This document shows positions 11,650-39,540 of a stretch of 64,000 bases of DNA, piece by piece. How positions within the stretch are numbered: position 1 is the stretch's first letter; each line of letters starts with the position of its first letter. The notes under the pieces are model-generated. The model was not told the origin of the DNA. It worked only from the letters and a program-made list of their open reading frames with translations, and ran no database searches. This DNA comes from a virus. Made by a program: the position numbers and the translations under genes. Location of the stretch: positions 5,633 to 69,632 of IMG/VR virus record IMGVR_UViG_3300035438_001811; one strand, 5' to 3'.

Positions 11650-11719
11650 TGTTTAACTCCTTTGCTTGTATGAGATTTTACCACTCAGGAAAAGATGAAA
11701 ACAATCTGTCGCAAGTATT

Positions 11720-13503: not shown

Positions 13504-13517
13504 TACTCAAGAGGGTT

Positions 13518-14242: not shown

Positions 14243-14416
14243 TGACTAAAAACATTAACGATTACAACTCAATTCCGCCTACTGAATACCGCAAATTCCT
14301 AGATGAGATTGCGAGGCAGATTAAATATGCTAATAGTTTGCGTTGTCCAGACAGTGAGCGCCTCCCAATTTTGCGGGGTGCTTTGAAGATTTTGCTAAGT
14401 AATGCTGGTGAAACTA

Positions 14417-14668
14417 ATGAACTTTGAGCAAAAACTAGATGCTGTACTAGATTCAATTCGCAAAATGTTGCTTGATAAAAACCGCAAATATGGCAACTCA
14501 GCACTAAGCCCAATTCGTGTATTTAGCAAAGCTGAACCATTGGAGCAAATCGCGGTAAGGATGGATGACAAGCTTTCTCGCATCAAGAGCGCTCAAGGTG
14601 ACGATCTAGAAGATGCAAAACTTGATTTAATTGGATATTTAATATTAGAGGCGATCGCAAAATTATGA
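14417..14668 (+). CDS. DUF1599-like nucleotide-modification-associated protein
   Basis: KNRKYGNS...IAVRMDDKLSRI...D..LDLIGYLIL. Confidence 0.7.
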   Translation: MNFEQKLDAVLDSIRKMLLDKNRKYGNSALSPIRVFSKAEPLEQIAVRMDDKLSRIKSAQGDDLEDAKLDLIGYLILEAIAKL

Positions 14669-14952
14669 CTAATGAAGAAATTAACCTCGCAGTTGCAGCA
14701 ATCGCGGGATGCACAGATATTGAAATTCCAAATTATGCCGAGAGCTTGGATGCGATTGTCAAGGTGTTTGATCGTTTGGATTTAGATTGGAATATAGGTA
14801 AGGATTGTGATGCTTACAGCCTTGTTAACGAAGGGTACGATCATCGTAATGCATTTGGGGAAACACCCGCACTCGCGCTTTGTAATCTGCTATTAAAAAT
14901 AAACCCCACTCCGATCGCGCCGCCTCAGGTTGCGATTATTGATGATGATTGA
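14665..14952 (+). CDS. Phage ABA-sandwich-like protein
   Basis: EINLAVA...PNYAESLDA...GETPALALC. Confidence 0.55.
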   Translation: MTNEEINLAVAAIAGCTDIEIPNYAESLDAIVKVFDRLDLDWNIGKDCDAYSLVNEGYDHRNAFGETPALALCNLLLKINPTPIAPPQVAIIDDD

Positions 14953-14963
14953 GAGCATGATTA

Positions 14964-15443
14964 ATGCAAGAAATTGAACGAGCCAAACTCATCGGCTTTT
15001 TCGATGCCCATCGCGGCTCTTACTCCCTCCGCTACATCGAAATATGTACTCAAATCAATACGAGCGCATTGCGCTTACTCCTTCAAAGCCAACAGATGAT
15101 CATGGGTAACTGGCTACTTCAAACAGGCGCAACTTTGTATTCCTATTGGAGCGCAAACGTAACCAGAATCGAAGAAGGATTTATTGCTGATGCTTTACTC
15201 AAGTTTGCTGAATCGCCATACCTAGGCGGTCAATCTGGGACAGGGTGCGGACTATGCTCTATGCAATTCTGGTTTGAGACTGCGGACGGCGATCGCGGTG
15301 AGTTTATGCAGATTACTCCACACGCTCAAAAGTTAAGCGATCGCGCCTCTGAATCTCATGCAAGATATAAGCAATATCTTGAAGATTACAAAGGCTTTCT
15401 CGCGGATTCTAAGAGCGATATTAGGAGTTTGCTAAATGGATAA
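14964..15443 (+). pseudogene. csf2: N-terminally truncated type IV Csf2 (Cas7-group RAMP)-like remnant
   Basis: SQQM....LLQTGATL followed by the RAMP glycine loop YLGGQSGTGCG; much shorter than full Csf2. Confidence 0.6.
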
Positions 15444-16266
15444 TATTGGCTTAGCGTATCAAATCGAAAATTTGATTGGTGACAGTTTTAGCAACATTGT
15501 TTATTTTATTAAAGTAGATGAATGGCTTGTGAAAATTGGCAGCGCTTCAAATTTTGCTAATTTTGAGAAGAGGTTTGAAGAGTGTTCAAGATGGGTTGCT
15601 AAACCTGAATTGATAGGGTTTGTTTACTGTGATCGCAAAGCAGAAAAATTGATTCACAACCTTTTAACTTCTTTTCGGGTTCAATCAAAAGGAAGGGAAA
15701 TTTTTACGTTAGAGCATGACGTAAAAAGATATATATCCAAATGGTGTGACAATCAATTTAGCGTAAGTAGCTGGTGTACTTACAATAGTTCTTGGTCTTT
15801 TCAAAAACATCTGGAGTATTTAGATGAATTAATGAAAGATGCTCAAAACGAAAATCAGAAAAACTTTTTGAATGCTACCAAAGAGAATGCAAATAAAAAG
15901 GCATTAGAGCAAATTGGATTGCATGAGTTCCTAGACTTTGTTTTATCTGGCAACACATGGCACATTGTTGAAGAGAATGGCGCTATTAATGGCACGCCCG
16001 AAGTGATCACTTTTGCTCAGAAACTCAAAGATTTGCGAAAAGGCGGCGAATTGACAGAGCTTGGTATTCATTTAACCTGTGGGTATGAGTCAAACTTAAC
16101 TTCATACATTGGAGCCATGCTGACATGGCTTGGCTTAGCTAGAACATCTAAGCAAAAAACCATCAATAAAAAACGGGTGCGAATATATCAACTGCATCAG
16201 CAAGAAGAACAAGAAGAATACGGCAATGAAGACGCTTTTAACTGGGATGTATTAACACCATGCTAA
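15436..16266 (+). CDS. GIY-YIG (T5orf172/MUG113-like) nuclease-domain protein
   Basis: VYFI....VKIG....EKR....EKLIH..L..FR....REIF. Confidence 0.7.
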   Translation: MDNIGLAYQIENLIGDSFSNIVYFIKVDEWLVKIGSASNFANFEKRFEECSRWVAKPELIGFVYCDRKAEKLIHNLLTSFRVQSKGREIFTLEHDVKRYISKWCDNQFSVSSWCTYNSSWSFQKHLEYLDELMKDAQNENQKNFLNATKENANKKALEQIGLHEFLDFVLSGNTWHIVEENGAINGTPEVITFAQKLKDLRKGGELTELGIHLTCGYESNLTSYIGAMLTWLGLARTSKQKTINKKRVRIYQLHQQEEQEEYGNEDAFNWDVLTPC

Positions 16267-16718
16267 CCAATCTCCAAATAATTGCACACATGGCAACGCC
16301 GCTTGTTGCCTATGATGATTGGTCGCCTAGCTTTGATGCTCTGATTGAGTATCAGTTGCTAGATCGATTAGGGTTAATCACGCCTAACCCAACGGCGGCT
16401 GACGCTGAAAAGAATTTACCCTTGATCTTTGGTGAGATGCCGATCGCCCGAAAGATGCTAAATGGTGAATGGTATTGGGCGGTAAGCTCTCCTCATTACA
16501 TTGAAAATCATCAGCAAATTTCGCAATATGTAAAGCGCTGGGATAAGCAAGAATTACACCTTGATTTAAAAGGGAAACGTGGCAAGTTTAGTGGTAGTGA
16601 AGGGCATTTTAAAGCCTATAAATTGCCTAAATACAACCGTGAAATGCAGTCTATACACTTAAATTGTAAAGAAATATTACAAAGTACTAGGCAGTATAGT
16701 ACTAGCCTGTTATATTAG
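16260..16718 (+). pseudogene. csf3: C-terminally truncated type IV Csf3 (Cas5-group)-like remnant
   Basis: LQIIAHMATPL...FDAL...MP.....GEWYWAVSS...KRWD...G.FKAY..P. The C-terminal glycine loop is absent and the ORF runs into a promoter at ~16660. Confidence 0.65.
16688..16716 (+). promoter_or_regulatory. Promoter with TAGTACTA palindrome, homologous to 2272-2300 (-)
   Basis: GCAGTATAGTACTAG and downstream CAAGCAAATGACTACCGCAA are shared with the ~2230-2326 locus. Confidence 0.7.
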
Positions 16719-16745
16719 GTACATACCAAACAAGAGGACAAGCAA

Positions 16746-17048
16746 ATGACTACCGCAACAGCAATCAACCCAAGAACCGCGCTAAAAAACGAAATCTGCT
16801 TTACTTTTCAATCGCAGTTTCAAATCAAGCGCGAAACCTTACCCGCCGTGCTTGAAGCGATTAAAAAAATTTCTAACTCAGCAGATATGTGGATTTGCGC
16901 TGGTAAGTATTTTTCGACCAGCGAAATGAAAAAAGCCGCTTGCGGTTTTGCTCGTCAGTTCAAAGATCTTGAATCCCCCAAAAAAGCTAAAAAGATTGAC
17001 GAAGCAAAGATTGCTTTGGATACTTGGTTTGGCACAGATTTGTATTAA
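16746..17048 (+). CDS. Hypothetical cassette gene
   Basis: Follows the promoter and a GAGG RBS. Confidence 0.6.
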   Translation: MTTATAINPRTALKNEICFTFQSQFQIKRETLPAVLEAIKKISNSADMWICAGKYFSTSEMKKAACGFARQFKDLESPKKAKKIDEAKIALDTWFGTDLY

Positions 17049-17417
17049 TCTAATCTCAATTAATCCCTAATAGGGATTCTCGCTAAATTTATCAAGCTCT
17101 TGCGAGATGAGCGCTACCGAAAAGAAAGTTATGAAATGGGTTGCAAATTTTAACGGGCGTTTTAATGAAGGTGTAAAAGCCGTAGATTTTACTGAGTCAG
17201 AAATTCAATCCGCTATGGATTTTGCACAGGAAAAAGATCTTGAGCCAACTTACCAAGATTGTGAGCATTTTTTAAAATCTATCTCTTGCCACATTATTGA
17301 AAAAGAAATGTCTTTTGAAGCTTTCCTTGCATGGATTTTAAAATATGATGATTTAGATCGAATTGAAGGTTGTTTTTCAAGGTATCAAGCGCGTCATTTT
17401 GATGGCGATTTAATTAA

Positions 17418-17705
17418 ATGCTAAATCAATACGAACATTACACTCGCTTTGGCGCTGAGTTTACTTCTAATGGCTACAAAGCCCCAAGGCGATCGCTAAC
17501 AAGTGGTGAGCGTCATGTACTCGCTATTTACAAATTACTCAAAGATGGTAAATGGCATACAGCCTCAGAGGTGATGCAAGTTACAGGCTCTAAATCTAAG
17601 CAGCATACCCGTAATTTTCTACGATCGCTAATGACTCCTTTAGGGCTTGCCAGTGGACAGCAAGGATACTGCATGGTAAATCAAAACTCGATATTAGTTG
17701 TATAA
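17418..17705 (+). CDS. Winged-HTH hypothetical protein
   Basis: IYKLLKDGKWHTASEV... Confidence 0.5.
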   Translation: MLNQYEHYTRFGAEFTSNGYKAPRRSLTSGERHVLAIYKLLKDGKWHTASEVMQVTGSKSKQHTRNFLRSLMTPLGLASGQQGYCMVNQNSILVV

Positions 17706-19649: not shown

Positions 19650-20398
19650 ATGCTAATTTTTGAGATTGAGCAAAAGCCTACCTTTAAATCTAAAACCGTT
19701 TTTGGTGTTGAAATCCCATTGCTAGGGGAACTAACTGTTAATGAAACGATCGCAGTCGATAAGGCGATCGCTACCGACCTTAGCTCAACCAGTGCCAATA
19801 CTGAATGGAAAATCGTTCAGGTATCTGCATGGTTATCAGTGCGATTATCTGTAAGCCGTGAAGAAATTACAGCGCAACTCAAAAAATCAATGCCTTTGAT
19901 CGAGGCGCTATGGTTAACTTTTGTCTCAGAACGTGAGGGCATTACAGAAAGCTATGAACTCGATGAACCAGTGACGGAGGGAAAGGAAGACGATCCAACC
20001 GTACCGTTAAAGACATCGAAGAAGAGTGGAATCAAATCTACCTCAAACTCACATCAAGTTGCTTTGCTCCAAAATTCAGAGATGGATTTGGACAGCAACG
20101 AATAAGCGTAATCAGATCGCATCTTGCTTATATCAATGAGCAAGAGTTACAGCGATCGGCTGAGCTAGAGGTTATTGCGGCGCGAAATACGTTGGCTACT
20201 GGTGATTTTAAAGACCGTGAGAAAGCTTTCCGATCTTTGACACCATCATTGCAGGCATTGCGGAGAATGCAAGCCAAAAAGCAGATGAGCGTTAGGTTTG
20301 CTAAGAAATTTGCGAAGCTATTTAAGGAAGGCAAAATACCGAATTGGGTAGTTGAAATTTGCGATTACGAGACGATTGAATTATTAGCGGGTGATTGA
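19650..20398 (+). CDS. Tail assembly chaperone gpG (19650-20105) and -1 frameshift product gpGT (to 20398)
   Basis: Lambda-type slippery site G GGA AAG at 19979-19985; the -1 frame is open from there through ORF 20192-20398. Confidence 0.85.
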
Positions 20399-20399
20399 T

Positions 20400-23300
20400 A
20401 TGGCTGATGAGAATTATGCAATTAGAGTTAGTTTTGATGGCATCGACAAGGCGATCGGTGACATCAAATTACTGCAATCTGCGATCGGCAATATCAAATT
20501 ACCTGCACTTAATATCGATTTAAGTAAATTTACTGGCATTGAAAAAACTCAGATTGCATCCGTCGCAAGAGTAGAAGCTGCTCAAATTGCGTCACAAGCT
20601 AAAGTTGACGCAGCTAGATTAACAGGAGCTTCAAAAGTCTCAGCGTTAGAAGTTGGCGCGATCGCTAAATTAGAGTCGGCTCAAATAGCAGCTAACGCTA
20701 AAGTTTTAGCTGCTAAAGATGGCAATGCTACCAAAGTCGTTAACGCTGAAATAGCAGCGCAATCTAGATTAGAAGCTGCGAGAATAGCATCTGCTACAAA
20801 AATCAGTAATGCAGAAATATCAACGATCGCCAAATTAGAAGCCGCTAGGATTGCATCTGCCACTAAGGTTAGTGCTGTAGAAGCCTCAACAATTGCAAAG
20901 CTAGAAGCGGCTCAAATAGCTTCCAATGCCAAGATTGAAGCATTGCGATTAAATTTGTCAGCAAAAGCGATCGCTAATGAAGTGGCAGCAGTTACTAAGA
21001 TTGAATCAATAAAGATTGCTAGCGATGCAAAATTAGCTGCAAATAAAGACTCTAATGCTGTTAAATTGCGTACTGCGGAACTAAGTAATGAAAGTAAAAT
21101 CGAAGCTGCTAAACTTGCCACAACTGCCAAAATAACGGCTGCTGACAGTGCGGCAATCGCAAAATTAGAAGCGGCGGAATTAGCTTCTAATGCCAAGATT
21201 GAAGCTGCTAAAATTGCATCTGCTACTAAACTGGAAATAGCAGAAAAAGCAAGATTAGATAGGCAAAGAAAAGAGTCAGAAGCGCTAGCAAGAACAGAGT
21301 CAGCAAGAGCAGCTAAAGCGATCTCTGACGCTGAAAAATCATCAACAAAACCACAATCAAAAAGCAATTCTGATGCAGTAATTGCTCAACTAGAAAAACA
21401 AAAAGCTGCTAGCACTGTACGAGTATCTGATGGCGCTGACAAAGAATCCGCCCGAATTGCACAAGAAACACTTAGATATAAGCAGCAAATTGCCGCGATT
21501 GACGCAAAGATTTTCAACCCTGCGGATATTGCTAACGCTAAAGCTCTAGCGAGTGAAATTAATAAACTCAATCTTGACAAAATCAAGAAAGGATTTGACG
21601 ATGCGAGTCCTGTAACTTTTAATCAGTTCATTGGCGCTACTACTGAGAAAGCGCGAGATTTAGCTGAGCAACTACAAAATACATCACAGACATTAGAACG
21701 GATTGGAACTACTTTTAACCAAGTTTCTAGCGCTGCGAATCAGGCATTTTTAGGCTTTGATACTGCCAAAACTAAAGTAGCGACATTATCTACTCAATCC
21801 AACGCTTTTGCTAATACAGCTATCAAGCTATCAAAGGATTTAAACAATCAAGTAACCAGCACCGAAATATTAACAGCACAATATGAAATTCTATCTAGTG
21901 GATTTATTAATGCTGCTGATGCATCAGAGATTGCCAGAGTATCGGTATTAGGTGCTAAAGCTGGTTTTACTGACACAGCTACGGTAGCTGATGCAACTAC
22001 CTCAATTTTGAATGCCTATGGTTTAGCTGCTAGCGATGCTGCTAATGTGGTAGACCAATTAGCAGTTGTGCAGGATAAAGGTAAAACAACGATCGGGCTA
22101 TTTGCTGGTCAGCTTGGTAAAGTTGCGCCAATTGCTGCAAGTGCGGGCGTAACACTAAACGAGTTAAACGCTGCCATAGCAAGCGTTACGATTAAAGGCG
22201 TTAAAACCGAGACTGCGGTTAGTGGTATTAGACAGGCGATTGTCAACTTGGTCAAGCCCACGCAATCCGCACAAAAAGTGTTGGAGGCTATTGGGATCAC
22301 TAACGCTGCTACAACGCTTAAAACTGAAGGATTAACAGGTGTACTCAATCGATTAAAAGCGGCTGGCTTAAACACCAGTAGTCAGCTATCTAAAATCTTT
22401 ACAGATATTGATGGTTTAACTGCTGTTGTCCCTTTACTTAACGACGACCTTAAGAACTTTAATGCAAATCTAGTAGCTGTTGGCAATGCATCAGGAAAAG
22501 CACAGCAAGGCTTTGATATTGTCGCTAAATCTGCTGAAGGTCAAATTACAGCAGCAATCAACAAAATCAATGAAGCTTTAGTCAATTTAGGGCGCGGCGC
22601 ACAGGTAGCTTTTGCGCCATTAGTAGCGGCTGTAGGCGCGGCTGTTGACGTATTCAACCAATTACCCGCACCATTGCAAACAGTTATAGGCGGCGTTATT
22701 GGATTAGTTGGAGGTGTCGCCACATTGGGCGCGGCTCTCACTGCGATCGGCGCGGCTGCCCCTGCTTTTATTGGTGGACTAAAATTATTTGGCATTCAGG
22801 CGGCGGCTTCTACCGTGGCGACTACAGGGCTAGCCACTGCTAACACCGTAACCGCCACATCGTTTGTAGGCTTAGGAGTAGCAACCAAAGCGGCGGCGGC
22901 TGGGTTTGTGACGTTCGCAACTACAGCTACTACCACAGTGACAGGCGCTTTGGTATCTGTTGGAGCATTGTTAGCTAAAGGCACGATTCTGGCTGGTACT
23001 TTTGCTGTGGTTGCTGTTAAAGCTATTGCGTCTATAGTTGTGGCTATGGCTCCATTAGTGGCAACTTTAGGGGTTGTCTATTTAGCCTTTGAATCTGTCC
23101 GAAATACAGCTAACTTATTTGGCGAAATTAACAGCAATAAAGCTGAGGATGCATTCGACAAAATTCTAAACAAAAGTACGGCTGTAGATGCGAAATTAAA
23201 ACAAGCGACTGCTACTTCACAATCGTTTACCGATAAGCTAGCAGGTGGATTTGATAAGGTAGAGAATCCAATACAAGGGGCGGCGCTTGCAATCACCAAT

Positions 23301-25316
23301 TTAAGCAATGCTTTAATCGGTGCTGAGTCAGGGGCTTCTAAATTTGGTTCGCAATTTGGCTTTATTACTCAACAACAATTAGAGGCGCAAAAGACTGCGA
23401 TCGCTTATAGTAACGCGATTACAACACTTAGCTCTGGTTTTCAGCCAGCCGTCAATCTTATCGGTAAATATGGCACTGGCATTGACTTTGAACGTCGCGC
23501 AACTCAGTTGTCAATTAAAGAAAACAAGGAATACCAAAAACAACTAGCTGCTACCAGCGAACGATTAAAGCAAGAAGTATCCGATCTAGAGGCTATCGGT
23601 AAGCAGAAAGGAGTAGACCAAGCTGCTAACAAATTAGAGATTGATTCTCGGAAAACATTGATCGCCCAATCGGATCAAAAAATTGCTGTACTCAAAAAGG
23701 AAGAGGAAGCGGTTAAGGCTGTATCTGATGCTGAAAGGGATAGAGCTAAACAGCTACGAGAAAACCAAAACCAAGACGCAGAAAAATCAATCAAGCGCTC
23801 CTTTGACGATGGCAAAACCAAGCGCGATCGCGAAAATGCTGATGCTATCAAGGCTATCGAAGAGAAAAACGCACTCGCAAAAGGTGAGCTAGATCGCAGA
23901 CAAGCGCTAGAAACTGAAGCGCTGAAGGAAAAGCAAACCCTAGCTCTACAAGACAAGCAAAGGGCATTTGATGATACTCAGAACGCCAAAAAGCTACAAC
24001 TTGAAGATGCTCTTGATGCTAAGAAGCGGGCGAATGAGGAGAAACTCAACGCACTCAAACAGGCATTTGACGATAAGCAAAACGCGCTTAAAGAACAGAG
24101 AGCAGAGAAACAACGTAAGGACGATGAGGCATTTGCAGCGCAACGCGCTCAACGTGACAAACAAGCAAGTGAGGCTCTATCAGGTGCTAAGCAGCTAATC
24201 AGTAATGAGGGTGCGATCGCCACTGCTAAACCAGAAGATCGCGCCAAGATTGCGGCGCAAATCGAAGAAGAAGAACGCATTAGAGCACAAGCTGCTACTC
24301 AAGGCGTAGCTGGTGGTACTGAATCCCAAGAACAATTAGTAGCTAAGGCTAAGCAAATCGCCCAAATATCTGCGATTGCCAACGGTGAGGAACAGAAAAA
24401 AGTAGAGTTTGCTATTGCTGAACTTGATAAAGCGAACAAAGCTAAGCAAGCTGAAATTGATAAGGCTGAAGTTGCAAAGCGCACTGAAGAAAAACAAGCT
24501 AGTGACAAAGTTTTTGAAGCTGAACAAAATGCTGCTAAGCTTGCCTTTGATGCTGAGCAAAACACTGCCAAGCTTAACTTTGAAAACACTGTTCTCAAAC
24601 CTGAAAAGCAAAAGATCGAAGCTGAATTACAAGCGAGTAAATTAGCCTTTGAGCGTGGCGAACTTGCAGCGCTGAAAACACAACAAGCAGCCGATGAGAG
24701 GGCTTTAAAACTTCAGCAAACTAACGAGGACTTAGCAGCTAAGAAAGCTGCTGATGCTGAGTTAGAGACGATTAAGCTCGCTCAAAAAGAGAAAGAACTA
24801 GCACTTGATCGCGCCTTTGAGGATCAGAAAATTGAACGTGAGAGAGCATTTAAGGAATCTCAGAGAGCCTTAGATAAAGCATCTGCCATAGAGATTCAAC
24901 AAATCCTTGGTAAGTCTGCACAGCAAATTATCAGCGCTCTCACGTTAGCTAAAGGTGATTCTAAGTTTGGGGCTGTAGCTGGTATTGGCACTAGTCCTAA
25001 AGGAGATGCTAAAGCTCTAAATAATCAGGATGAAGTAAATAGGGCGGCGTTAGGAGCTAGCACTTTACCTAAGTTTGCGCGTGGCGTTACAAACTTTGTC
25101 GGGGGTGCGGCATTGGTTGGGGAAAAAGGTGCTGAGCTGGTGACATTGCCTAGAGGCTCTAACGTGCTACCAGCAAACCAAACCAAGAACGTGCTTAATA
25201 ATTCGGGCGGCAATAAAACCTATAACGTAAATGTAACCACTGGCAGTGGTAATGCTACAGAGATCGCTTTACAGATACAGAGAGAGATGGCACGATCGGC
25301 GGCGCTGAGTATGTAG
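20400..25316 (+). CDS. Tail tape measure protein (TP901-like core)
   Basis: ~1640 aa, Ala-rich; GKTTI..FA..LG.VAPIAA..GV...EL.AAI core; C-terminal FA.G.....G.ALVGE.G.ELV..P.G. Confidence 0.95.
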   Translation: MADENYAIRVSFDGIDKAIGDIKLLQSAIGNIKLPALNIDLSKFTGIEKTQIASVARVEAAQIASQAKVDAARLTGASKVSALEVGAIAKLESAQIAANAKVLAAKDGNATKVVNAEIAAQSRLEAARIASATKISNAEISTIAKLEAARIASATKVSAVEASTIAKLEAAQIASNAKIEALRLNLSAKAIANEVAAVTKIESIKIASDAKLAANKDSNAVKLRTAELSNESKIEAAKLATTAKITAADSAAIAKLEAAELASNAKIEAAKIASATKLEIAEKARLDRQRKESEALARTESARAAKAISDAEKSSTKPQSKSNSDAVIAQLEKQKAASTVRVSDGADKESARIAQETLRYKQQIAAIDAKIFNPADIANAKALASEINKLNLDKIKKGFDDASPVTFNQFIGATTEKARDLAEQLQNTSQTLERIGTTFNQVSSAANQAFLGFDTAKTKVATLSTQSNAFANTAIKLSKDLNNQVTSTEILTAQYEILSSGFINAADASEIARVSVLGAKAGFTDTATVADATTSILNAYGLAASDAANVVDQLAVVQDKGKTTIGLFAGQLGKVAPIAASAGVTLNELNAAIASVTIKGVKTETAVSGIRQAIVNLVKPTQSAQKVLEAIGITNAATTLKTEGLTGVLNRLKAAGLNTSSQLSKIFTDIDGLTAVVPLLNDDLKNFNANLVAVGNASGKAQQGFDIVAKSAEGQITAAINKINEALVNLGRGAQVAFAPLVAAVGAAVDVFNQLPAPLQTVIGGVIGLVGGVATLGAALTAIGAAAPAFIGGLKLFGIQAAASTVATTGLATANTVTATSFVGLGVATKAAAAGFVTFATTATTTVTGALVSVGALLAKGTILAGTFAVVAVKAIASIVVAMAPLVATLGVVYLAFESVRNTANLFGEINSNKAEDAFDKILNKSTAVDAKLKQATATSQSFTDKLAGGFDKVENPIQGAALAITNLSNALIGAESGASKFGSQFGFITQQQLEAQKTAIAYSNAITTLSSGFQPAVNLIGKYGTGIDFERRATQLSIKENKEYQKQLAATSERLKQEVSDLEAIGKQKGVDQAANKLEIDSRKTLIAQSDQKIAVLKKEEEAVKAVSDAERDRAKQLRENQNQDAEKSIKRSFDDGKTKRDRENADAIKAIEEKNALAKGELDRRQALETEALKEKQTLALQDKQRAFDDTQNAKKLQLEDALDAKKRANEEKLNALKQAFDDKQNALKEQRAEKQRKDDEAFAAQRAQRDKQASEALSGAKQLISNEGAIATAKPEDRAKIAAQIEEEERIRAQAATQGVAGGTESQEQLVAKAKQIAQISAIANGEEQKKVEFAIAELDKANKAKQAEIDKAEVAKRTEEKQASDKVFEAEQNAAKLAFDAEQNTAKLNFENTVLKPEKQKIEAELQASKLAFERGELAALKTQQAADERALKLQQTNEDLAAKKAADAELETIKLAQKEKELALDRAFEDQKIERERAFKESQRALDKASAIEIQQILGKSAQQIISALTLAKGDSKFGAVAGIGTSPKGDAKALNNQDEVNRAALGASTLPKFARGVTNFVGGAALVGEKGAELVTLPRGSNVLPANQTKNVLNNSGGNKTYNVNVTTGSGNATEIALQIQREMARSAALSM

Positions 25317-25345: not shown

Positions 25346-25555
25346 TTATTCATTCTCTACCCAAACAATAATTTTAGATGGCTGAATCTTGTAGGCATCG
25401 CAGATTTTAGCGATTGAGCCTGTAGATGGTATATGCCAAGGGTTACGCGCTAACTCATAGCCAGTTGTACCGCTTATCCCCGTTTCTTTGACGAACTGAT
25501 AAGCGGTTATTTTTCTTTCTTCCAGAAATTCTTTAACTATATTTCTTAAAGCCAT
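25346..25555 (-). CDS. Cro/C1-type HTH regulator divergent from the type V effector
   Basis: ITAYQFVKETGISGTTGYEL...PS...IAKICDAY.IQP. Confidence 0.85.
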   Translation of the reverse strand: MALRNIVKEFLEERKITAYQFVKETGISGTTGYELARNPWHIPSTGSIAKICDAYKIQPSKIIVWVENE

Positions 25556-25583
25556 ATCACAATTAAAAGCTTGTATTAAAAGC

Positions 25584-25613
25584 TTGTCAATAGTATCAAT
25601 ACTATGATACTAT
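25584..25613 (+). promoter_or_regulatory. Effector promoter TTGTCA-N18-TACTAT with palindromic operator ATAGTAT-CA-ATACTAT
   Basis: Palindrome at 25590-25605 sits between -35 and -10; ATG is 6 nt after the -10 box, suggesting a leaderless mRNA. Confidence 0.7.
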
Positions 25614-25619
25614 CAGTAT

Positions 25620-27296
25620 ATGACTAGCAATGAAGCCACTACTAAAAAGATAGCTGAATTTAAGTTGTCTCCCACGATTGAGCAAAGCGCACAAATTGAT
25701 ATGTGGCTTACTCAACTTAAATGGGTATGGAATGTTGGTTTAAGTCTGCTTGAGGAAGATCAGCAACGTTATTGGAGGGCAAAACAAGAATGGGCAGAGT
25801 ATAGTCCTGAAGTATGGCAATGGCGAAAATCATGCAAAATCGACGGGATTGAGTATGTAAATCCTGATAATCAATACGGGCTTTGCTGTGCTTACTATCC
25901 TGATAAATGCGACATCCGCAAACATCGGGATATTGAAGAGCCATTTAAGCACGTTAAAAATTATCGCTTTATCGCTAATATGCGATGTCCTGATTTTTTG
26001 CACCCTATCGATAGCGAATCACGGCGATCTGTTGTGGATAACCTAATTGATGCATGGACTCAGTACCGCAAGGGGAAAAAAGGCAGACCACGTTACAAAA
26101 AGAAAGCTGATAAATTAGAAAGCTTTTCTAACGGCAATGGTCGGATATACGTTAATATTTCGCCCTTGGGTAATGACAATGCATTAATTGACTATCCAAA
26201 GCTAGGGTCAATCAAATGCAAGGGATTCTACCGTCGCTATGCTGGTAATCATACAATTGTACGCATCGTCAAAAAGGCTGACGGCTATTATGTGCAATTC
26301 ACTAGCACGGTAGACGTAAAGCCCGTTAAACCAGCAAAAAAGCAAGAAGTAGGCTTAGATTTTGGTGTAGTCGCTCCTATTGCTGATAGTGATGGAAGAT
26401 TGCATAAATCAAAACGCTATGCCAAATTGCAAGCTAAGAAATTAGCTCGTATTCAGCGCTCTATCTCACGCTCAAAAGATGGCTCTAACCGTCTAAAAGC
26501 TAAACGCTCTAAACTAGCTAAAGTGCATCTTAAAATCGCTAGGCAACGCGATCGCTTTATTCATAAGCTCACATCCAAGTATGTGAGTGAATATCAAAGC
26601 ATTGCCATTGAGGATACCAAGGTTAAAAATATGGTACGCGCACCAAAGGCGAAAGCTGGTGAAAATGGCGCGTTTCTACCTAATGGCGCGGCTGCAAAAG
26701 CTGGCTTAAATAAAGCGCTTCTTGATGTGGCGATCGGCAAAACAAAAACGATGCTAGAGACTAAATCTAAAGCATCAGAAAGAATATTTGTGAAAGTACC
26801 CGCACCGCACACTTCTCAAGGTTGCTCTCAGTGTGGCTACTATTCCGAAGAGTTTCGACCATCTCAAGCTGTTTTTAAATGCTTGAATTGTGGTCATGGT
26901 GACAACGCAGATAGCAACGCCTCAACCGTTATCCGTAATGTTGCTTTTAAAGGCTTGGTTTTGAAACCATACCCCGCTTCATCGGGGGAATTTAAGGGCG
27001 TGGATCATGCAACGCATGGGAAGAAGCGCCAACCGAGTAAGACTCGCAAGAGTAAGAAAGGATCGGTAGGAGAAACATCTACCGCAATCAACCGCGAAAG
27101 CGGGGCTGTAAATAGTCTAACCACTCGCGCAAACCCTGAAAACCAATCACCACAAGACTTTGAGCTATGGCAAGATTTAAAATCACTATCTAAAGCCAAC
27201 TCTAAATTGCAATCTCGTAAGCGATCCGCGCAAATCGATCCTAATATTGGCGCTCAGCTTGGTTTTTGGGATCTGTCTGGTGAAGCTTCTGGTTAA
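25620..27296 (+). CDS. tnpB: CRISPR-associated TnpB-like RuvC nuclease (type V-U / Cas12f-like effector)
   Basis: RuvC-I VGLDFG, RuvC-II IAIEDT, Zn ribbon CSQC..CLNC, RuvC-III NADSNA; directly adjacent CRISPR array; no tnpA. Confidence 0.9.
   Translation: MTSNEATTKKIAEFKLSPTIEQSAQIDMWLTQLKWVWNVGLSLLEEDQQRYWRAKQEWAEYSPEVWQWRKSCKIDGIEYVNPDNQYGLCCAYYPDKCDIRKHRDIEEPFKHVKNYRFIANMRCPDFLHPIDSESRRSVVDNLIDAWTQYRKGKKGRPRYKKKADKLESFSNGNGRIYVNISPLGNDNALIDYPKLGSIKCKGFYRRYAGNHTIVRIVKKADGYYVQFTSTVDVKPVKPAKKQEVGLDFGVVAPIADSDGRLHKSKRYAKLQAKKLARIQRSISRSKDGSNRLKAKRSKLAKVHLKIARQRDRFIHKLTSKYVSEYQSIAIEDTKVKNMVRAPKAKAGENGAFLPNGAAAKAGLNKALLDVAIGKTKTMLETKSKASERIFVKVPAPHTSQGCSQCGYYSEEFRPSQAVFKCLNCGHGDNADSNASTVIRNVAFKGLVLKPYPASSGEFKGVDHATHGKKRQPSKTRKSKKGSVGETSTAINRESGAVNSLTTRANPENQSPQDFELWQDLKSLSKANSKLQSRKRSAQIDPNIGAQLGFWDLSGEASG
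26968..27094 (+). ncRNA. Putative omegaRNA-derived tracrRNA overlapping the effector ORF (boundaries approximate)
   Basis: IS200/605-like omegaRNA motif GGAATTTAAGGGCGTGGA..GAAGCGCC; hairpins CATGC/GCATG and CGGTAG/CTACCG; anti-repeat CAATCAACCG at 27085-27094. Confidence 0.55.
27095..27278 (+). promoter_or_regulatory. Cyanobacterial-type CRISPR leader within the ORF tail
   Basis: AGCGGGG followed by two spaced CGCGCAAA motifs (CTCGCGCAAACCCTGAAAACC; GATCCGCGCAAATCGATCC) before repeat 1. Confidence 0.55.
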
Positions 27297-27750
27297 GCGA
27301 TCGGCTGATTGGAAGCGCAAAGCGCCCGCAAAGCTTTTTAAATGGCTAACCAGTGGGTGAAGCTTCTGGTTAAGCGATCGGCTGATTGGAAGGGATATCA
27401 GAGTCAGAGAGAGAGGCATTAGTCCAAGGTGAAGCTTCTGGTTAAGCGATCGGCTGATTGGAAGTTTGATGGTATCCCGATCCCTGATGTGAATAGCAGG
27501 TGAAGCTTCTGGTTAAGCGATCGGCTGATTGGAAGAGACCGACATCGACAATATACTATTGAGAGAATTAGGTGAAGCTTCTGGTTAAGCGATCGGCTGA
27601 TTGGAAGGCAGAAAGCATCATAGAGCCATTGCCAATCATTGAGGTGAAGCTTCTGGTTAAGCGATCGGCTGATTGGAAGTGAATATTCATAAAATCCATT
27701 GGAGCTTTTAGACGGTGAAACTAGTGGTTAAGCGATCGGCTGATTGGAAG
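27279..27750 (+). CRISPR. CRISPR array: 7 repeats of 37 bp (GGTGAAGCTTCTGGTTAAGCGATCGGCTGATTGGAAG) and 6 spacers of 34-40 bp
   Basis: Repeats start at 27279, 27356, 27428, 27499, 27571, 27643 and 27714; the last is degenerate (GGTGAAACTAGTGG...). Confidence 0.98.
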
Positions 27751-27836
27751 ACCAAATGCGGCGCAAAGACAAGATGATTGATGCATTGCTAGAGGCGATC
27801 GCAAAGATGAAGTGATATCTAAACGATTGATTAAAC

Positions 27837-27886
27837 GCAACAAAAAGACCATTTTCCTGTCATCGGGAAAATGGTCTTTTTGTTGC
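27837..27886. terminator. Long inverted-repeat terminator downstream of the array
   Basis: GCAACAAAAAGACCATTTTCC / GGAAAATGGTCTTTTTGTTGC. Confidence 0.9.
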
Positions 27887-28085: not shown

Positions 28086-28532
28086 TCATTTTCCATATGC
28101 TCTTCTCAATTCAGGCAACAAATTGATCGCAGTTTCGTAAGCCATTTGCACCTCACGAAATTTGTTAGGATCGCCGCCCGTATCAGGGTGATGTAATTTC
28201 GCCTGTTTGCGGTAAGCAGATTTAATTTCCCTCTCACTATTTGGGAACTTATCCAAGCCCAAAACAGCAAGAACAGAATCAATCCCTTTATCCCAGAAAG
28301 TCTCAACGCTACCCGTCATATTTTCAACTGGCAACGCCTCGACGAATTGCCAAATTGTGAATGTTGCACCATGCAAACCGTAGCCTCTGATTTTCCAAGC
28401 TCGGTAAGTCACATAGAACTTTGTACCACCCTCAGACGGGCATACGTTATCAATATCCATAGGCGAAACATCGAGCATTTTAGCGGCGCGGCGGCGCAAT
28501 TCGTCGAATGAGAATTTGATTTTGATAGACAT
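28086..28532 (-). CDS. J-domain (DnaJ-like) protein
   Basis: VLGL......EIKSAYRKQAKLHHPDTGGDPNKFREVQMAYE. Confidence 0.9.
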   Translation of the reverse strand: MSIKIKFSFDELRRRAAKMLDVSPMDIDNVCPSEGGTKFYVTYRAWKIRGYGLHGATFTIWQFVEALPVENMTGSVETFWDKGIDSVLAVLGLDKFPNSEREIKSAYRKQAKLHHPDTGGDPNKFREVQMAYETAINLLPELRRAYGK

Positions 28533-28536
28533 TGGT

Positions 28537-29172
28537 TTACCCGTTAATTTTGCAAGCTTTAGCTGAAGAAAACCAAACTGAATCAGAATATTTTGCAGCT
28601 TCTGAGACTGAAGCAATAAAAACAGATGCATGGTAATCACCATAGCCAAGATTTATTGTGGTTTCAAGATCGTCTGCTGTAACAATTTCAGCCCAATCAC
28701 AAAAATCCGCAAAGTGCCTGACATACCCGATAGTTGTTTCGATGTCAAATTGTGCATGGGACTTGTCCTCATGACTAAAGCTCAAATAGGTAAGCTCATC
28801 AACAGCACTAAGGAATGCGTCAACTACAGCGTCTTTAGCCAGTTTCAGGACTTGGTAATCATCCTTAGTTAGCTCTAATTGGCAGACAGGGATAGGGAAT
28901 CTATAGAGCTTGTCACCAATAATACAAACTTTAATTTCAAGCCCAGAGATGTTATTTGTGAGTTGATATTCCTGAACTTGATCCCGAAACTCATGATAAC
29001 AGCCAACCTCAAATAATCTTTGCGCTCCCAAAATAGAGCCTAGTGGTGTTTGCTTTGCGATTTCTTCGGCATTATCAGGCATAGGGAATGTGCGCTCACC
29101 ATTGACGCAAGCCATTCTCTCTATTTCTAGAATTTTAGTTAGCTCTTCAGTTGTATAAACTTTGTCAAACAT
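28537..29172 (-). CDS. Hypothetical protein
   Basis: 211-aa ORF in an operon with the J-domain gene. Confidence 0.6.
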   Translation of the reverse strand: MFDKVYTTEELTKILEIERMACVNGERTFPMPDNAEEIAKQTPLGSILGAQRLFEVGCYHEFRDQVQEYQLTNNISGLEIKVCIIGDKLYRFPIPVCQLELTKDDYQVLKLAKDAVVDAFLSAVDELTYLSFSHEDKSHAQFDIETTIGYVRHFADFCDWAEIVTADDLETTINLGYGDYHASVFIASVSEAAKYSDSVWFSSAKACKING

Positions 29173-29184
29173 CTTTTTTTTCTC

Positions 29185-29982
29185 CTACACCTTCACAACT
29201 TTATAGCCAAGATTGAGATCGATCTGATGACCATCCATGATCACACCATGACCTCGCAATGCCTTGATAATGCGTTCGCAACCTTTCCAACTAAACACGG
29301 GCTTCTGATATACCGCGCCATTAGGCAATGTCACAGGCGTTAGTTTTGCAAAGCCACGTTGCACAAAATCCGCATAGGGTTGATTAGTATCCTTGCTAAG
29401 AATCTTGACATCTTGACTGCAAAGAAACTTTCTAAAATCCTTCTCTTTATATTTGGGAATTGCGAGACATTTAAACAACTCACGCACATCTAGCCAAGTC
29501 TCGGAGTCCATGACGGTATCATACACATCGGCTTTAGGTTGCAAGACTTTGATCTCTTCTTTGAGCGCTTCCTTAGCTTCTATCTCAGAAGCCAAAAGCC
29601 TCAATGCCTCAGAAAATGTTTGAGGTAGTGCGGGTTGCGATGGAACTAACTCGACTTTACCAGTCGTCATGAGTTCATCAGTCCAAATATCTACTTGTAC
29701 CGCAAACTCATCACTACACCATTGAGCAAAACGGATCGCTACTTTAGGGTGTCCCCATGTGCCTTGATTTTGTGAGTCGCCACCTTGAATGACTTGCACC
29801 AAGTCCGTTATCTTGATCTGGATAACGCTTTCAAGAGCTTTTAAATAAGACTTTGTGGACTTGAGGTTATTCCAATGACCAAACAATTTACCACTGGCTT
29901 GCGCCATATCGGTTAACGAAACATAGCGATCGCTGCGAATACGGATAGCGCGATCATTCCAATTCTTGATAAGATTAGACAT
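29185..29982 (-). CDS. KilA-N domain antirepressor with ANT-like C-terminus
   Basis: YVSLTDMA...GTWGHPKVAIRFAQWCS..FAVQV; C-terminus highly similar to ORF 175-1002. Confidence 0.9.
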   Translation of the reverse strand: MSNLIKNWNDRAIRIRSDRYVSLTDMAQASGKLFGHWNNLKSTKSYLKALESVIQIKITDLVQVIQGGDSQNQGTWGHPKVAIRFAQWCSDEFAVQVDIWTDELMTTGKVELVPSQPALPQTFSEALRLLASEIEAKEALKEEIKVLQPKADVYDTVMDSETWLDVRELFKCLAIPKYKEKDFRKFLCSQDVKILSKDTNQPYADFVQRGFAKLTPVTLPNGAVYQKPVFSWKGCERIIKALRGHGVIMDGHQIDLNLGYKVVKV

Positions 29983-30049
29983 TGCTGTTGCACTGGTGTT
30001 TAGTGGATAGGGGCTTGGATGCTGTCAACATCGCGAAGCCACAAATATT

Positions 30050-30280
30050 TTAGCATTTTTCAGCTTTTAACTTAGCTCTTGACTCCGCTTGCTTCAGTCG
30101 CATGTATAGCTTGCCATCATCCGTTTTAAGCCAACATGCGCGGCAAATAGTGAGAGGTGAATCTGATCTGAGTTGGCGATCGCATTGCGTACAGTAGTAG
30201 CGTGGCTTGTCTGCTGTACGCTTTAGATATGCGGCGCGATCTATGTCTGCGCGGGTTTTAGTCATTTTTACTTTGCCCAT
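30050..30280 (-). CDS. Zn-finger protein (paralog family B)
   Basis: CTQC...ICRACWLKTDDG. Confidence 0.7.
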   Translation of the reverse strand: MGKVKMTKTRADIDRAAYLKRTADKPRYYCTQCDRQLRSDSPLTICRACWLKTDDGKLYMRLKQAESRAKLKAEKC

Positions 30281-30823
30281 GCAAAAGTTTTTGATTGATT
30301 TCTACATATTCCAACTCAGAAATAAATTCTGGGTTGTCGGTTTTATACTCAGGAATTAATTTGGTTAATTCCGTAATAGCATCACACCAATGCTGATCGC
30401 TAGAACAAGGGGCGCAATCTGCTTTTATTCTCATTAAAAGCAGATTGTTTAAAACTTTAAGCAGAGATTTGTGCATATTTAGCGCTCTTTGCGATTTCAG
30501 TAATTAGTAAATTAGCTGCGGGGCTGCAATCAGTAATTTTTAGTAGTCTTTTCAAAGCTCTATAAGTTCTAGCTACAACCTTGCCAGACTCATCGCGAAA
30601 ACTTCTACCTACTCCAATGAGCTTGCTGTCTGGGGTGAAAGAGAATGCTGTTAATGTTTCGTCATGCTCTTGAGGTGTAGCACCAGTAGATACATAAATG
30701 AAATGACCGTTTTTTTGGAAGCGATATTCAACCTGTAATGTTTTCATTGTCTTTTGCCTTGCTTGTTTAACTCAATGATCTATTATTGATCGAATATCCC
30801 TAGTTGTCAACTACTATTTACAA

Positions 30824-31180
30824 CTAATTTAAATTAGCTTTCAACTTAGCTCTATACCTACGACTGCGCTCAAATTGCGTCAAAGGTTCATCACCCAATA
30901 GGGGACGATGCGCGGGGCGATCGCCATCGGTACAAGTAAAGCCACATTTACAGCGATATTGCACTGCTCCTGATTTGGCTTGTTTACCATTGCGTCTTAA
31001 ATACAAGAGGTTAGCTAAAACCCGGATTGCGTATTTAAGGTTTACAGGCATCAGCATCACAGCGATCGCCCAACACTTGATACAGAAATGGCGATCGCTA
31101 TGATAGGGATTTGCGGGGTTAGGTTTAGGCATAAAATTATGACAATTATTCAAATCAAGACTATGACTCAAACAGAACAA
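30824..31180 (-). CDS. InsA-like Zn-ribbon plus basic helix protein (paralog family A)
   Basis: MPKPNP.NP...RNGKQAKSGAVQYRC...TDGDRP..RP.LGDEPLTQ.ER.RRYR. Confidence 0.65.
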   Translation of the reverse strand: MFCLSHSLDLNNCHNFMPKPNPANPYHSDRHFCIKCWAIAVMLMPVNLKYAIRVLANLLYLRRNGKQAKSGAVQYRCKCGFTCTDGDRPAHRPLLGDEPLTQFERSRRYRAKLKANLN

Positions 31181-37858: not shown

Positions 37859-38353
37859 TCATCTTCTGCACATTGTTCTTTTTCTAAATTGCCAAGGCAT
37901 TTCCGCATACTGCGAGGGATGCCCCCATCTGCCAAGCCTATGAGCTTTTGCCCTGTTTTGAGCCTTGGTGTACTGCTCTTGTATATCAGCAGTCAAGTAT
38001 CGCGGGTCAATCACTGCATAGCCAGCTTTTAGCATTGCTAGATTGATGTTTTTAAAGTTGTGGTATACAGTGCCAATCATGTCGCGATCGTAGCTTTTAT
38101 GCTTGGATGTGGGAACGATGGCAACCCTAGAACCTGTCGGCAAAATTCTATTTAGATATTGAGTCGCTTCTTTCCCTCCAGCTTGTCTAGATTCGTTGGC
38201 ATCAATTACAGCATATCTAACTTTGAATTTCTTACCGATGAGTGGCTTCACCCATGAGGTGTCACCATCGCAATGTTTGATTATTTTGTATGGCGATCGC
38301 CAGTAGTAGAAGTAGCAATATATGAGGATTGAGATCAAGATTAGATAGATCAT
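37859..38353 (-). CDS. Membrane-anchored thermonuclease (SNase family)
   Basis: DGDT, VRYAVIDANE, YDR..G.V, INLAMLKAGYA, A.A..LG.W. Confidence 0.9.
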   Translation of the reverse strand: MIYLILISILIYCYFYYWRSPYKIIKHCDGDTSWVKPLIGKKFKVRYAVIDANESRQAGGKEATQYLNRILPTGSRVAIVPTSKHKSYDRDMIGTVYHNFKNINLAMLKAGYAVIDPRYLTADIQEQYTKAQNRAKAHRLGRWGHPSQYAEMPWQFRKRTMCRR

Positions 38354-39540
38354 TGCTTTTTAAATCTCCCTAAAACCGTTTGTGTATATTCTTTGATCGA
38401 AGGATAATCACCGTCCCCATACTTTTGAGGAGTAGGATTATCGTACAAAGTAGGATCGCCGCTATACCACATAGACGCTACTTTGCGGATTTGCTGATCC
38501 GTATTTGACGCTGTTTTTGCTGTGATTTCCAAATACTCAGTCAGCTTGCAATCAATAATTTTGACTTGCTTGTCTTTGGACTCAATAAATTCCTTTTCGG
38601 TTAGCGGTTTACCTAAACACTGAGTAGACCACTCTTTTATATTTTCAGGCATCACTTGACCATATCCAAGGGCATTACTGTGCGGATTAATAGCGCTTGG
38701 ATTGTGGTTTGATTCTTGCCCTGCGATCGCGTTGCGTAAGCGCTCTACGATTGGTTTATTATTAGTGCTAGTTTCATACCATTTACCCTGTAGAGTGCTA
38801 ATTACAAAGCCTCTAGGAGGATCTATCCATTGACCATTTTGCTTTATACCAAAATGTAAATGAGGGGCAGTACTAGCGCCCGTATTACCAGTTTTTGCGA
38901 TCATTGCACCGATAGGATGGCGACCTGAATAGCAAGCCTCCAAGTGGAATAGGGCTATTTCGTATTCTGGCAATAATGGCGAAGTTACCCAAGCTGCAAT
39001 CCCTTCGGGTGGATTGCCGATATTTAAGGGGCAAGCTACATCGACGTATCCTTCGCTAAAGGCAAGATTAGGACTAGGCTTACCGATTGCATATAGGGGC
39101 GTTCCTACAGGTGTATTTAAGTCCACGCCTTTATGATCGGTAGAACATTCGGCGCATGGCTTATCACGTAATCCGAAAGCAGATGTAACTTCCCATTGCA
39201 ATACCTTTTCACCAACTTTTAAAGGGGCATTAAAGTCTTTATCAGTTGCATCGATTTTGAGATTGGTTTCGAGCGATGACTTATCAAATACTGGTAAATT
39301 TAAAGCTCTCCATCCCCATTCTGCAAAGCTGTTAAATGGCTGGATAACTACAAAAGAAAGTAAAACACCTGAAACTATAAGCCTTGCAGCGTTATTTATT
39401 TGTAGTTGTCTTTCCGCCTGTGATAAGACTTGGTGCTGATACTCTGGTAGGCATATCTCGATCAGCGATTCCATCTGTTTCTTTGGATGTGCGCTTTTTA
39501 GTGTTGGTGAGCGATTGTGGTGCTGATTGGCTAAAGTCAT
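38350..39540 (-). CDS. Cell-wall hydrolase: TM, M23 peptidase and lytic-transglycosylase-like domains
   Basis: HKGVDL..PVGTP, KTGNTGASTAPHLHF; AIAGQES...A.N..S.ALGYGQVMP. Confidence 0.9.
   Translation of the reverse strand: MTLANQHHNRSPTLKSAHPKKQMESLIEICLPEYQHQVLSQAERQLQINNAARLIVSGVLLSFVVIQPFNSFAEWGWRALNLPVFDKSSLETNLKIDATDKDFNAPLKVGEKVLQWEVTSAFGLRDKPCAECSTDHKGVDLNTPVGTPLYAIGKPSPNLAFSEGYVDVACPLNIGNPPEGIAAWVTSPLLPEYEIALFHLEACYSGRHPIGAMIAKTGNTGASTAPHLHFGIKQNGQWIDPPRGFVISTLQGKWYETSTNNKPIVERLRNAIAGQESNHNPSAINPHSNALGYGQVMPENIKEWSTQCLGKPLTEKEFIESKDKQVKIIDCKLTEYLEITAKTASNTDQQIRKVASMWYSGDPTLYDNPTPQKYGDGDYPSIKEYTQTVLGRFKKQ

Follow-up and report, generated by a model that had tools for sequence, protein, structure and literature searches.

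Why would a tailed cyanophage carry, directly downstream of its tape measure gene, a lone TnpB-like nuclease gene whose reading frame ends inside a CRISPR array, and against what would such a nuclease be turned? The question is raised by a stretch of 64,000 nucleotides, hereafter the window, taken from the IMG/VR virus record IMGVR_UViG_3300035438_001811 (positions 5,633 to 69,632 of that record); coordinates are those of the whole window unless a locus identifier is given. Here, I propose that the unit spanning positions 25,346 to 27,886 is a type V-U2 (C2c8-like) CRISPR module of a ~70-kb tailed cyanophage infecting Pseudanabaenaceae, aimed at elements resident in the host, a reading held with a probability of roughly 0.7. 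To judge from its sequence, the module is probably functional and its direction against host-resident elements likely.

The nuclease, a protein of 558 aa, is best matched by profiles of the V-U2 kind. The PADLOC Cas12u2 profile covers most of it (E 6.7e-107, model positions 2-442 over effector residues 10-475), the best NCBIfam model is that of type V C2c8 (V_cas_c2c8, 303 bits, as against 192 bits for guided_TnpB), and its Pfam domains are OrfB_IS605 and Cas12f1-like_TNB. The D-E-D triad of RuvC and a four-cysteine zinc ribbon, which an initial annotation had read from the letters alone, are both present: in a HMMER alignment, D247, E331 and D431 fall on the RuvC residues of ISDra2 TnpB; together with C402, C405, C421 and C424, they are without variation among 13 and among 37 of 37 aligned homologues. 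The Trp/Cys-rich stretch near the N-terminus, which the same annotation had taken for an unusual insert, is real, its C72 and C90 being invariant and its C89 and C97 nearly so, and is an insert relative to TnpB only, because the V-U2 profile spans it. By sequence, the nearest solved structures are 9yyg, an AI-designed RNA-guided nuclease (E 2e-25), and then ISDra2 TnpB (E 1.5e-20). An AlphaFold2 model based on 37 relatives (mean pLDDT 73.8) is confident over the core (aa 5-454) and falls below 50 over a disordered tail (aa 455-558); Foldseek places the ISFba1 and ISDra2 TnpB structures (8iaz, 8h1j) on top, with target TM of 0.72-0.75, followed by Cas12p, LaTranC and Cas12f. The ratio of non-synonymous to synonymous divergence (dN/dS) in the core is 0.09-0.13 over five pairwise comparisons; the core is under strong purifying selection. 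Invariant triad and ribbon, profiles and predicted fold together argue for a Cas12 of the V-U2/C2c8 kind that has the size of TnpB and is catalytically intact.

Within that kind, the effector is best filed, on present sequence comparisons, as a divergent lineage and not as a canonical member. In a FastTree phylogeny of 64 out of 128 sequences (fragments P0013-P0016 and 60 TnpB-like rows being left out), the window clade is monophyletic with support 100 on a long stem, and the five C2c8 proteins that pass the curated NCBIfam cut-off (350 bits, exceeded in five of 401 sampled cyanobacterial genomes) are not monophyletic. The locus, first described as close to the transition from TnpB to Cas12, is not an unplaced intermediate; its profiles assign it to a named group, V-U2/C2c8, which appears to be experimentally uncharacterised in the literature.

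The array consists of seven 37-nt repeats, six of them identical and the terminal one with three mismatches, separated by six spacers (S1-S6) of 40, 35, 34, 35, 35 and 34 nt; the repeat family forms a single array in the phage genome, where the effector gene too is single-copy. As first annotated, the TAA stop of the effector open reading frame (ORF; 27294-27296) falls within repeat 1 (27279-27315). In four of the four close loci that retain downstream DNA (L001, L002, L004 and L102) the array likewise begins inside the last codons of the ORF; the close homologues are not borne by insertion sequences (IS). The position of the stop within repeat 1 is incidental: a 1-nt indel in L102 and P0006 carries the frame across repeat 1 and on into spacer 1.

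Among metagenomic proteins, fifteen have an identity of 69-93% to the effector, the next best reaching 42% at most. Two IMG/VR contigs, L001 and L002, belong to related phages with the gene order of the window; their cas12 DNA is 95% identical to that of the window, as against 82-91% in the flanks, and their five-repeat arrays have no spacer in common with it. A scan of IMG/VR for the repeat returned two contigs besides the window's own record, both already known, and a metagenome scan added one further full-length relative. On the host side, contig39 of Pseudanabaena sp. FACHB-1998 (L004) carries a 582-aa gene, 77% identical to the effector, with an array of 32 repeats behind it. The rest of the contig is chromosomal (histone deacetylase, Rieske oxygenase, DUF3326, ABC transporter), the locus adjoins YoeB/YefM and PIN toxin-antitoxin genes, and the cas12 gene is the only one common to that contig and the phage.

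The array was searched against 71 genomes of the family of Pseudanabaena, and the matches were re-aligned. Four of the six spacers match Pseudanabaenaceae genomes: S1 in six genomes (37/40 at best), S3 in one (33/34), S4 in three (34/35, 33/35 and 32/35) and S6 in two (30/34 and 29/34). The targets of S1, S3 and S6 belong to one family of elements encoding a MobA/VirD2 relaxase, an FtsK/SpoIIIE ATPase, a serine resolvase and a protein of 1150-1170 aa; the targeted element is plasmid-like or resembles an integrative and conjugative element (ICE). Two of the three full-length spacers of L001 match the same element family (G035:C75 and G022:C2). The protospacer of S4 lies within hepT (PF01934), and the HepT/MNT pair is located between cas3' (TIGR03158, 385 bits) and cas10d (TIGR03174, 900 bits) in a type I-D operon. 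The initial annotation had supposed a nuclease aimed at competing phages or elements. The elements are borne out by the four matching spacers, the phages are not: no spacer match came out of a BLAST comparison of 50,697 phage records with the unit as a whole and with the array. A single 24-nt match to a Salmonella phage (E = 2) was judged to be due to chance. The array of L004 likewise has no phage match, and there are no self-targets in the phage genome.

The chromosomal array of L004 is directed against a multi-copy IS605 TnpB gene and a recombinase-like gene. Its spacer 28 (L004 9711-9747) matches the former, a gene of 397 aa (L145-L158) present in four copies on one contig of genome G022 and in at least ten further genomes; in the Pseudanabaena chromosome, a TnpB-derived effector thus appears to police TnpB elements. 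The possibility that S1 and the host spacer H_S8 lie at homologous sites was ruled out, the proteins of the S1 element having no tblastn match in the H_S8 loci. A member of the targeted element family (L173, G022:C2:52000-71999; 1-3400 and 8600-17600) has, a few kb away, a CRISPR array whose repeats are of the I-D type, an array visible only as repeat-derived ORF matches.

A search for a 5' protospacer-adjacent motif (PAM) had been proposed together with the search for targets. The 5' flanks of eight independent V-U2 protospacers read ATC, GTT, GTC, GCT, [A/G]TC, GTC, GTT and ATG, that is, RTY in six of eight (background 0.075, binomial p 4e-6) and GTY in four of eight, and the 3' flanks show no pattern; a 5' motif without a 3' counterpart indicates guides oriented repeat-5'/spacer-3'. 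The family genome G055 carries a type I-D locus (Cas6, Cas4, Cas1d, Cas2) with at least 108 repeats, and of the 107 spacers in its array, 17 have full-length matches to the phage of at least 80%, three of which are perfect; it is because of these spacers that Pseudanabaenaceae are named as the host family. A GTY flank is found at 12 of these 17 phage protospacers, and the published type I-D PAMs are GTN and GTH (PMC10212523). Repeats of the V-U2 array and of the G055 I-D array are both 37 nt long and have similar 3' ends (GATTGGAAG vs GATTGAAAC), and spacers measure 34-40 nt in the former and 34-39 nt in the latter. The phage array and the host I-D array thus agree in PAM, repeat length and spacer length, traits that probably reflect spacer uptake in trans by the host I-D enzymes. 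The description of the unit as self-contained is therefore doubtful, since its spacer uptake probably depends on the Cas1-Cas2-Cas4 of the host type I-D system.

Three further observations concern such arrays. At G055:C297:40000-54000 (L100), an I-D spacer (6888-6921) matches the V-U2 repeat of the phage (27279-27750) over 30-31 nt with one mismatch, from which it follows that the host took a spacer from the CRISPR array of the phage. In another cyanobacterial genome (L110, G275:C209), a C2c8 gene passing the cut-off ends in ...QLTIWDLLD and is followed by a solo repeat-like ...GGATTGAAAC, then by an ORF that resembles Cas2 by eye only and by an array with repeats ending GGGATTGAAAC; V-U2 may there share arrays or adaptation with a class 1 system. 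Finally, in the metagenome run X20, a 10-kb contig joins 27278 to 27643, so that this variant array keeps S6 only, which fits gain or loss of spacers at the ORF-proximal end.

In TnpB, the guide scaffold overlaps the 3' end of the ORF, and a 5' adjacent motif is required. A comparable overlap is suggested for the effector by the DNA of its tail. Synonymous divergence of the window from L004 or L102 is 0.55-0.59 in the core and 0.26-0.27 over codons 445-552 (Fisher p 1.6e-5 and 1e-6), and dN/dS goes from ~0.1 in the core to ~0.6 in the tail. In the DNA alignment of the tail, near-invariant blocks form hairpins; RNAalifold gives 89 pairs, of which 8 are changed on both sides; slid controls have 0-1 such pairs, and a count of 8 is attained in 15 of 500 shuffles. 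Two stretches could pair with the repeat as anti-repeats (Table 1). The first is complementary at 9 of 10 positions to the L004 repeat too, as read from the alignment, and its region belongs to the best duplex found for L102; the second is invariant in four of four sequences and for that reason has no covariation. Comparable complements of 7-8 nt stand 117-215 nt upstream of repeat 1 in L004, L108, L109 and the cyanophage CL131 discussed below. A trans-activating CRISPR RNA (tracrRNA) was also sought by duplex energy: the best windows (-31 kcal/mol) lie inside the genome background (minimum -35), with per-locus z-scores from -1.9 to +1.5, so energy alone does not identify one. The tail DNA is, on these grounds, a candidate tracrRNA- or omegaRNA-like scaffold overprinted on coding sequence, and it may double as array leader. 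In a freshwater metatranscriptome (run X23), a 316-nt contig of a relative lies on 26989-27284 (24 mismatches, 18 gap letters), over just the ORF tail as far as the beginning of repeat 1, at a depth of 10.7, against 3.1 for a 173-nt contig of the ORF body (26430-26599); the contrast is suggestive of a separate scaffold RNA, and is not counted as evidence because the contigs come without ends, strand or level and from a single study.

The same tail closes on a second conserved feature, the heptapeptide QLGFWDL (aa 546-552). QL(G/S)FWDL is found in 13 of 13 sequences of the window clade, and 15 V-U2-like proteins of more distant relationship, among them the named C2c8 of Pantanalinema, have Q[LFI]x[LIF][WF] no more than 25 residues from their C-terminus. 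The consensus for binding to the beta sliding clamp is given as Q-L-S-L-F/L, on flexible C-termini, and a putative clamp motif was described in 2014 at the C-terminus of cyanobacterial IS200/IS605 OrfB (PMC3971601). A complex of effector residues 510-558 with DnaN of a probable host, G055, was modelled. It scored 0.64, the best of three controls scoring 0.02, and passed a mark that 58 of 80 solved complexes attain, as do 2 of 110 mismatched pairs; the contacts, which connect effector residues 546-552 with DnaN residues 175-178 and 378-384, agree to at least 90% between runs, with a partner pLDDT of at least 59. QLGFWDL resembles a beta-clamp-binding motif, and its fit into the DnaN cleft is predicted by the model.

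A possible course of events can be put together from these elements. The cas12 gene and the array would be transcribed rightwards from the promoter-like site at 25584-25613, and the last ~330 nt of the ORF would double as a structured, tracrRNA- or omegaRNA-like scaffold which, by pairing with the 3' half of the repeat, would give guides oriented repeat-5'/spacer-3', as in TnpB and Cas12. The complex would cut, or at least bind, double-stranded DNA adjoining 5'-RTY, its disordered tail tethering the nuclease to the replisome through the beta-clamp-binding-type motif, and host type I-D Cas1-Cas2-Cas4 would insert new spacers at the ORF-proximal end. During infection, the phage would turn the system on the relaxase/FtsK/resolvase element and on the host type I-D operon, the purpose being counter-defence or competition between mobile elements. 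More tentatively, and with doubt as to the whole of it, the phage may be seen as lytic and engaged in a CRISPR-versus-CRISPR conflict: the host I-D system holds at least 17 anti-phage spacers, and the phage would borrow I-D adaptation against the I-D operon itself and the plasmid/ICE-like element, with a clamp motif, encoded on the very DNA of scaffold and leader, delivering the nuclease to replicating targets.

Several points weigh against the proposal of a V-U2 module aimed at host-resident elements. As to targets, S2 and S5 have no credible match in the 71 family genomes, the protospacer matches are imperfect (85-97% identity), the S4 site was not found in the 14 kb upstream of cas6 in G055, the genome with many anti-phage spacers, and the spacers could represent bystander uptake of host DNA in place of selected weapons. 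As to classification, the C2c8 score of 303 bits is below the cut-off of 350, as is that of the host homologue in L004 (299 bits); the deep nodes of the 64-row FastTree have supports of 81-92, which leaves the placement unsettled, and the sister of the window clade is, with support 81, an actinobacterial TnpB group. As to the scaffold, the covariation comes from four sequences in two lineages, the structure being derived from that same alignment, and the anti-repeat complements, 7-10 nt long, are singly no better than shuffles or background. As to the clamp, the pass of the complex may be the model's memory of solved clamp-peptide complexes, QLGFWDL differs from QLSLF (F at position 4, W at position 5), and the motif is absent in L107, the top C2c8 scorer, and in three other cut-off-passing loci. 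Transcription, processing, binding and cleavage are all deduced from sequence and models.

Cleavage is indeed where the best surviving alternative departs from the proposal, in holding the module to be an RNA-guided DNA binder or silencer, like Cas12m and Cas12k, that represses, for instance, the host I-D operon or plasmid genes. A roadblock at S4, which lies inside the operon, would silence cas10d and the genes downstream, and matches of 85-97% might suffice for binding; yet neither the RuvC triad nor the zinc ribbon varies among the 37 of 37 aligned relatives and the core dN/dS is ~0.1, which makes this alternative unlikely. Small effector size, on the grounds of which a gene-regulatory role was raised for V-U2 in 2018 (PMC6293099), has a counterweight in TnpB and Cas12f, of similar or smaller size and solved with target DNA.

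It is rather improbable, too, that the unit is passenger cargo, a captured host V-U2 locus whose spacers record host immunity or random uptake and from which the phage gains nothing. The Pseudanabaena chromosome with its 77%-identical gene and 32-repeat array would be a natural source, that gene being the only one in common, and the chromosomal array likewise targets mobile elements (the IS605 TnpB gene and a recombinase gene). Between the related phages, however, cas12 is the best-conserved block (95% vs 82-91% in the flanks), and their spacers differ, yet five of nine full-length ones match the same element family. The repeat was found in only two IMG/VR contigs besides the window's own record; nevertheless its copies are kept identical, and at least 85% of the sampled words of the locus occur in each of 20 runs labelled as lake-water metagenomes, runs that may be one campaign and of which one may be the source sample.

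As for an ordinary IS200/IS605-type TnpB, with an omegaRNA for transposon homing and a chance tandem repeat downstream, the OrfB_IS605 domain, the TnpBs among the best solved-structure matches and an RNA-like element overlapping the 3' end of the ORF as in TnpB would all fit, and the notion is effectively refuted by the want of a Y1 TnpA in the record, by a repeat family confined to one array of the genome, by the regular spacing of the seven repeats, whose unique spacers match PAM-flanked sites elsewhere, and by a homologous host locus with 32 repeats.

The V-U2 module proposed here is not the first of its kind, since a phage-borne minimal type V system has been known from the V-U2 locus of the Aphanizomenon phage vB_AphaS-CL131, published in 2018 with 10 spacers, a 36-nt repeat and an effector annotated as a TnpB transposase (PMC6293099); the window locus is a variant of the V-U2 kind already reported on a phage. 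The two have in common a phage-borne effector and array with no other cas genes described for CL131, and one CL131 spacer was reported to match a cyanobacterial chromosome (PMC6293099). They differ in that the CL131 effector is 36% identical (tblastn) and belongs to another FastTree subclade, in that its ORF ends 255 nt before the array whereas that of the window enters repeat 1, and as to a tracrRNA: the account of CL131 in PMC6293099 reports none, whereas an 18-nt anti-repeat-like region, able to form ~14 base pairs with the repeat, is found here 149 nt upstream of repeat 1. In the CL131 genome (L101, MG209611.1, 3892-4148), the reading frame immediately preceding repeat 1 ends in ...QLTLW-stop, which recalls the C-terminal motif of the family, and P0023 (515 aa), the nearest relative of its effector, ends in QLTLFDL; the CL131 effector gene may be frameshifted or mis-called.

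According to PMC7229846, and in agreement with a second paper, the 2020 nomenclature places the V-U2/C2c8 loci of cyanobacteria under Cas12f3. With these loci, the window locus shares the best profile matches, a TnpB-sized effector, an array with 36-38-nt repeats, the lack of adaptation genes, the cyanobacterial distribution and, as in many members, a C-terminal QLxLW(D) motif. It differs by an effector below the NCBI cut-off, in a separate, 100%-supported lineage on a long stem, and by its junction: in four canonical C2c8 loci (L107-L110), 144-818 nt separate the stop from the array, whereas the window ORF spans that interval into repeat 1. ISDra2 TnpB (PDB 8h1j) is alike in fold and catalytic residues; in contrast to it, the window locus has no TnpA, a multi-spacer array in place of a single guide, an N-terminus ~50 aa longer and a tail ~105 aa longer. 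The type I-F system of the Vibrio phage ICP1, directed at the host PLE island (Seed et al. 2013, as cited in PMC6293099), offers a parallel for phage CRISPR spacers matching host defence-linked DNA; as presented there, it is a full class 1 system with adaptation genes, whereas the window locus has a single class 2 effector, probably host adaptation and a putative role in counter-defence. The transposases of PMC3971601 likewise carry, at the C-terminus and within a flexible tail, a motif of the QLxL(F/L) type, and the passages of that paper on these motifs make no link to CRISPR or V-U2.

In the table of a 2024 review, V-U2, alone among the five original V-U groups, is given neither a Cas12 letter name nor a PAM (PMC11641405), and no title retrieved from the literature mentioning V-U2 and Cas12 names V-U2. 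What is new here are the spacer targets in DNA of the host family, the 5'-RTY flank, the constrained tail with its hairpins and the clamp-like motif. The locus and its relatives offer a natural unit of 2.5 kb with natural targets, a candidate 5'-RTY/GTY PAM, a candidate scaffold RNA and a likely host family. If the proposal is true, it would be a second case, in the other CRISPR class, of a phage CRISPR turned against host-resident defence DNA, and a first link of a Cas12/TnpB-type nuclease to the replisome clamp, no such link being found among the titles listed for sliding clamp and Cas12. The proposed use of one stretch of DNA as protein tail, RNA scaffold and array leader would bear on the path from TnpB omegaRNA to CRISPR array.

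Table 1. Features of the V-U2 unit and their positions in the window
Feature	Position	Strand	Remarks
Divergent Cro/C1-type helix-turn-helix (HTH) gene, 69 aa	25346..25555	-	Pfam HTH_26, E 5.4e-11; possible regulator
Promoter-like site just 5' of effector ATG	25584..25613	+	TTGTCA-N18-TACTAT, extended TG; consensus match only
Type V-U2 (C2c8-like) Cas12 effector	25620..27296	+	Core aa 1-454, disordered tail aa 455-558
Conserved hairpins in ORF tail	26972..27103	+	Candidate 5' part of tracrRNA- or omegaRNA-like scaffold
Helices with compensatory changes	26972-26987, 26997-27030, 27005-27019, 27061-27089	+	RNAalifold alignment
Candidate anti-repeat 1, CAATCAACCG	27085..27094	+	9/10 bases complementary to CGGCTGATTG of the repeat
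Invariant hairpin CCGC-GAAA-GCGG	27092-27103	+	No sequence change
Candidate anti-repeat 2, CCAATCA	27143..27149	+	RNAalifold pairing with TGATTGG, 3' end of the repeat
Codons for QLGFWDL	27255..27275	+	One codon before repeat 1
CRISPR array, 7 repeats/6 spacers	27279..27750	+	Repeat starts 27279, 27356, 27428, 27499, 27571, 27643, 27714; terminal repeat degenerate
Spacers	S1 27316-27355, S2 27393-27427, S3 27465-27498, S4 27536-27570, S5 27608-27642, S6 27680-27713		
Hairpin, perfect 21-bp arms, 8-nt loop	27837..27886		Inverted repeat, 100% complementary; no strand

At its borders, the unit agrees with the initial annotation. The divergent HTH gene is there, within the 95%-identical block common to the related phage locus L001, and the perfect 21-bp inverted repeat, first noted as a strong terminator, is a probable bidirectional terminator closing the unit. 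This hairpin is absent from the output of a simple terminator scan; an Rfam search matched no family, its two sub-threshold matches both falling on the hairpin. Promoter-like sites in the region are not more numerous than in shuffles. The parent virus record is 69,632 bp long and ~90% complete (CheckV). Neither cas1 nor cas2 was found over its whole length (cas4 was not searched separately), nor a match to Y1 tnpA (PF01797; IS ends were not searched for).

The unit had been placed between the tape measure and distal tail genes. The first neighbour is solidly identified, a tape measure protein of 1641 aa (20391-25316) directly upstream; the second rests on one weak PHROG match (E 3.7e-5), and a minus-strand cluster (28086-31180) stands between the CRISPR unit and the next plus-strand genes. 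This cluster, which encodes a DnaJ-domain protein, a KilA-N/ANT antirepressor and small Zn-ribbon-like ORFs, looks like a moron or an anti-defence island. Elsewhere, the phage encodes an endolysin-like peptidase, a DnaB-like helicase, a DnaD-like loader, two DNA methyltransferases and a dCTP deaminase. An FtsK/SpoIIIE-like protein, weakly matched (PHROG E 2.6e-6), is encoded beside an M23/endolysin-like peptidase (40377-41537 and 38350-39540, both on the minus strand); neither product is homologous to the FtsK of the targeted element, with which blastp gave no match. A tRNA-Met (CAT) at 7639-7712, on the plus strand, is the sole tRNA detected by ARAGORN in the window.

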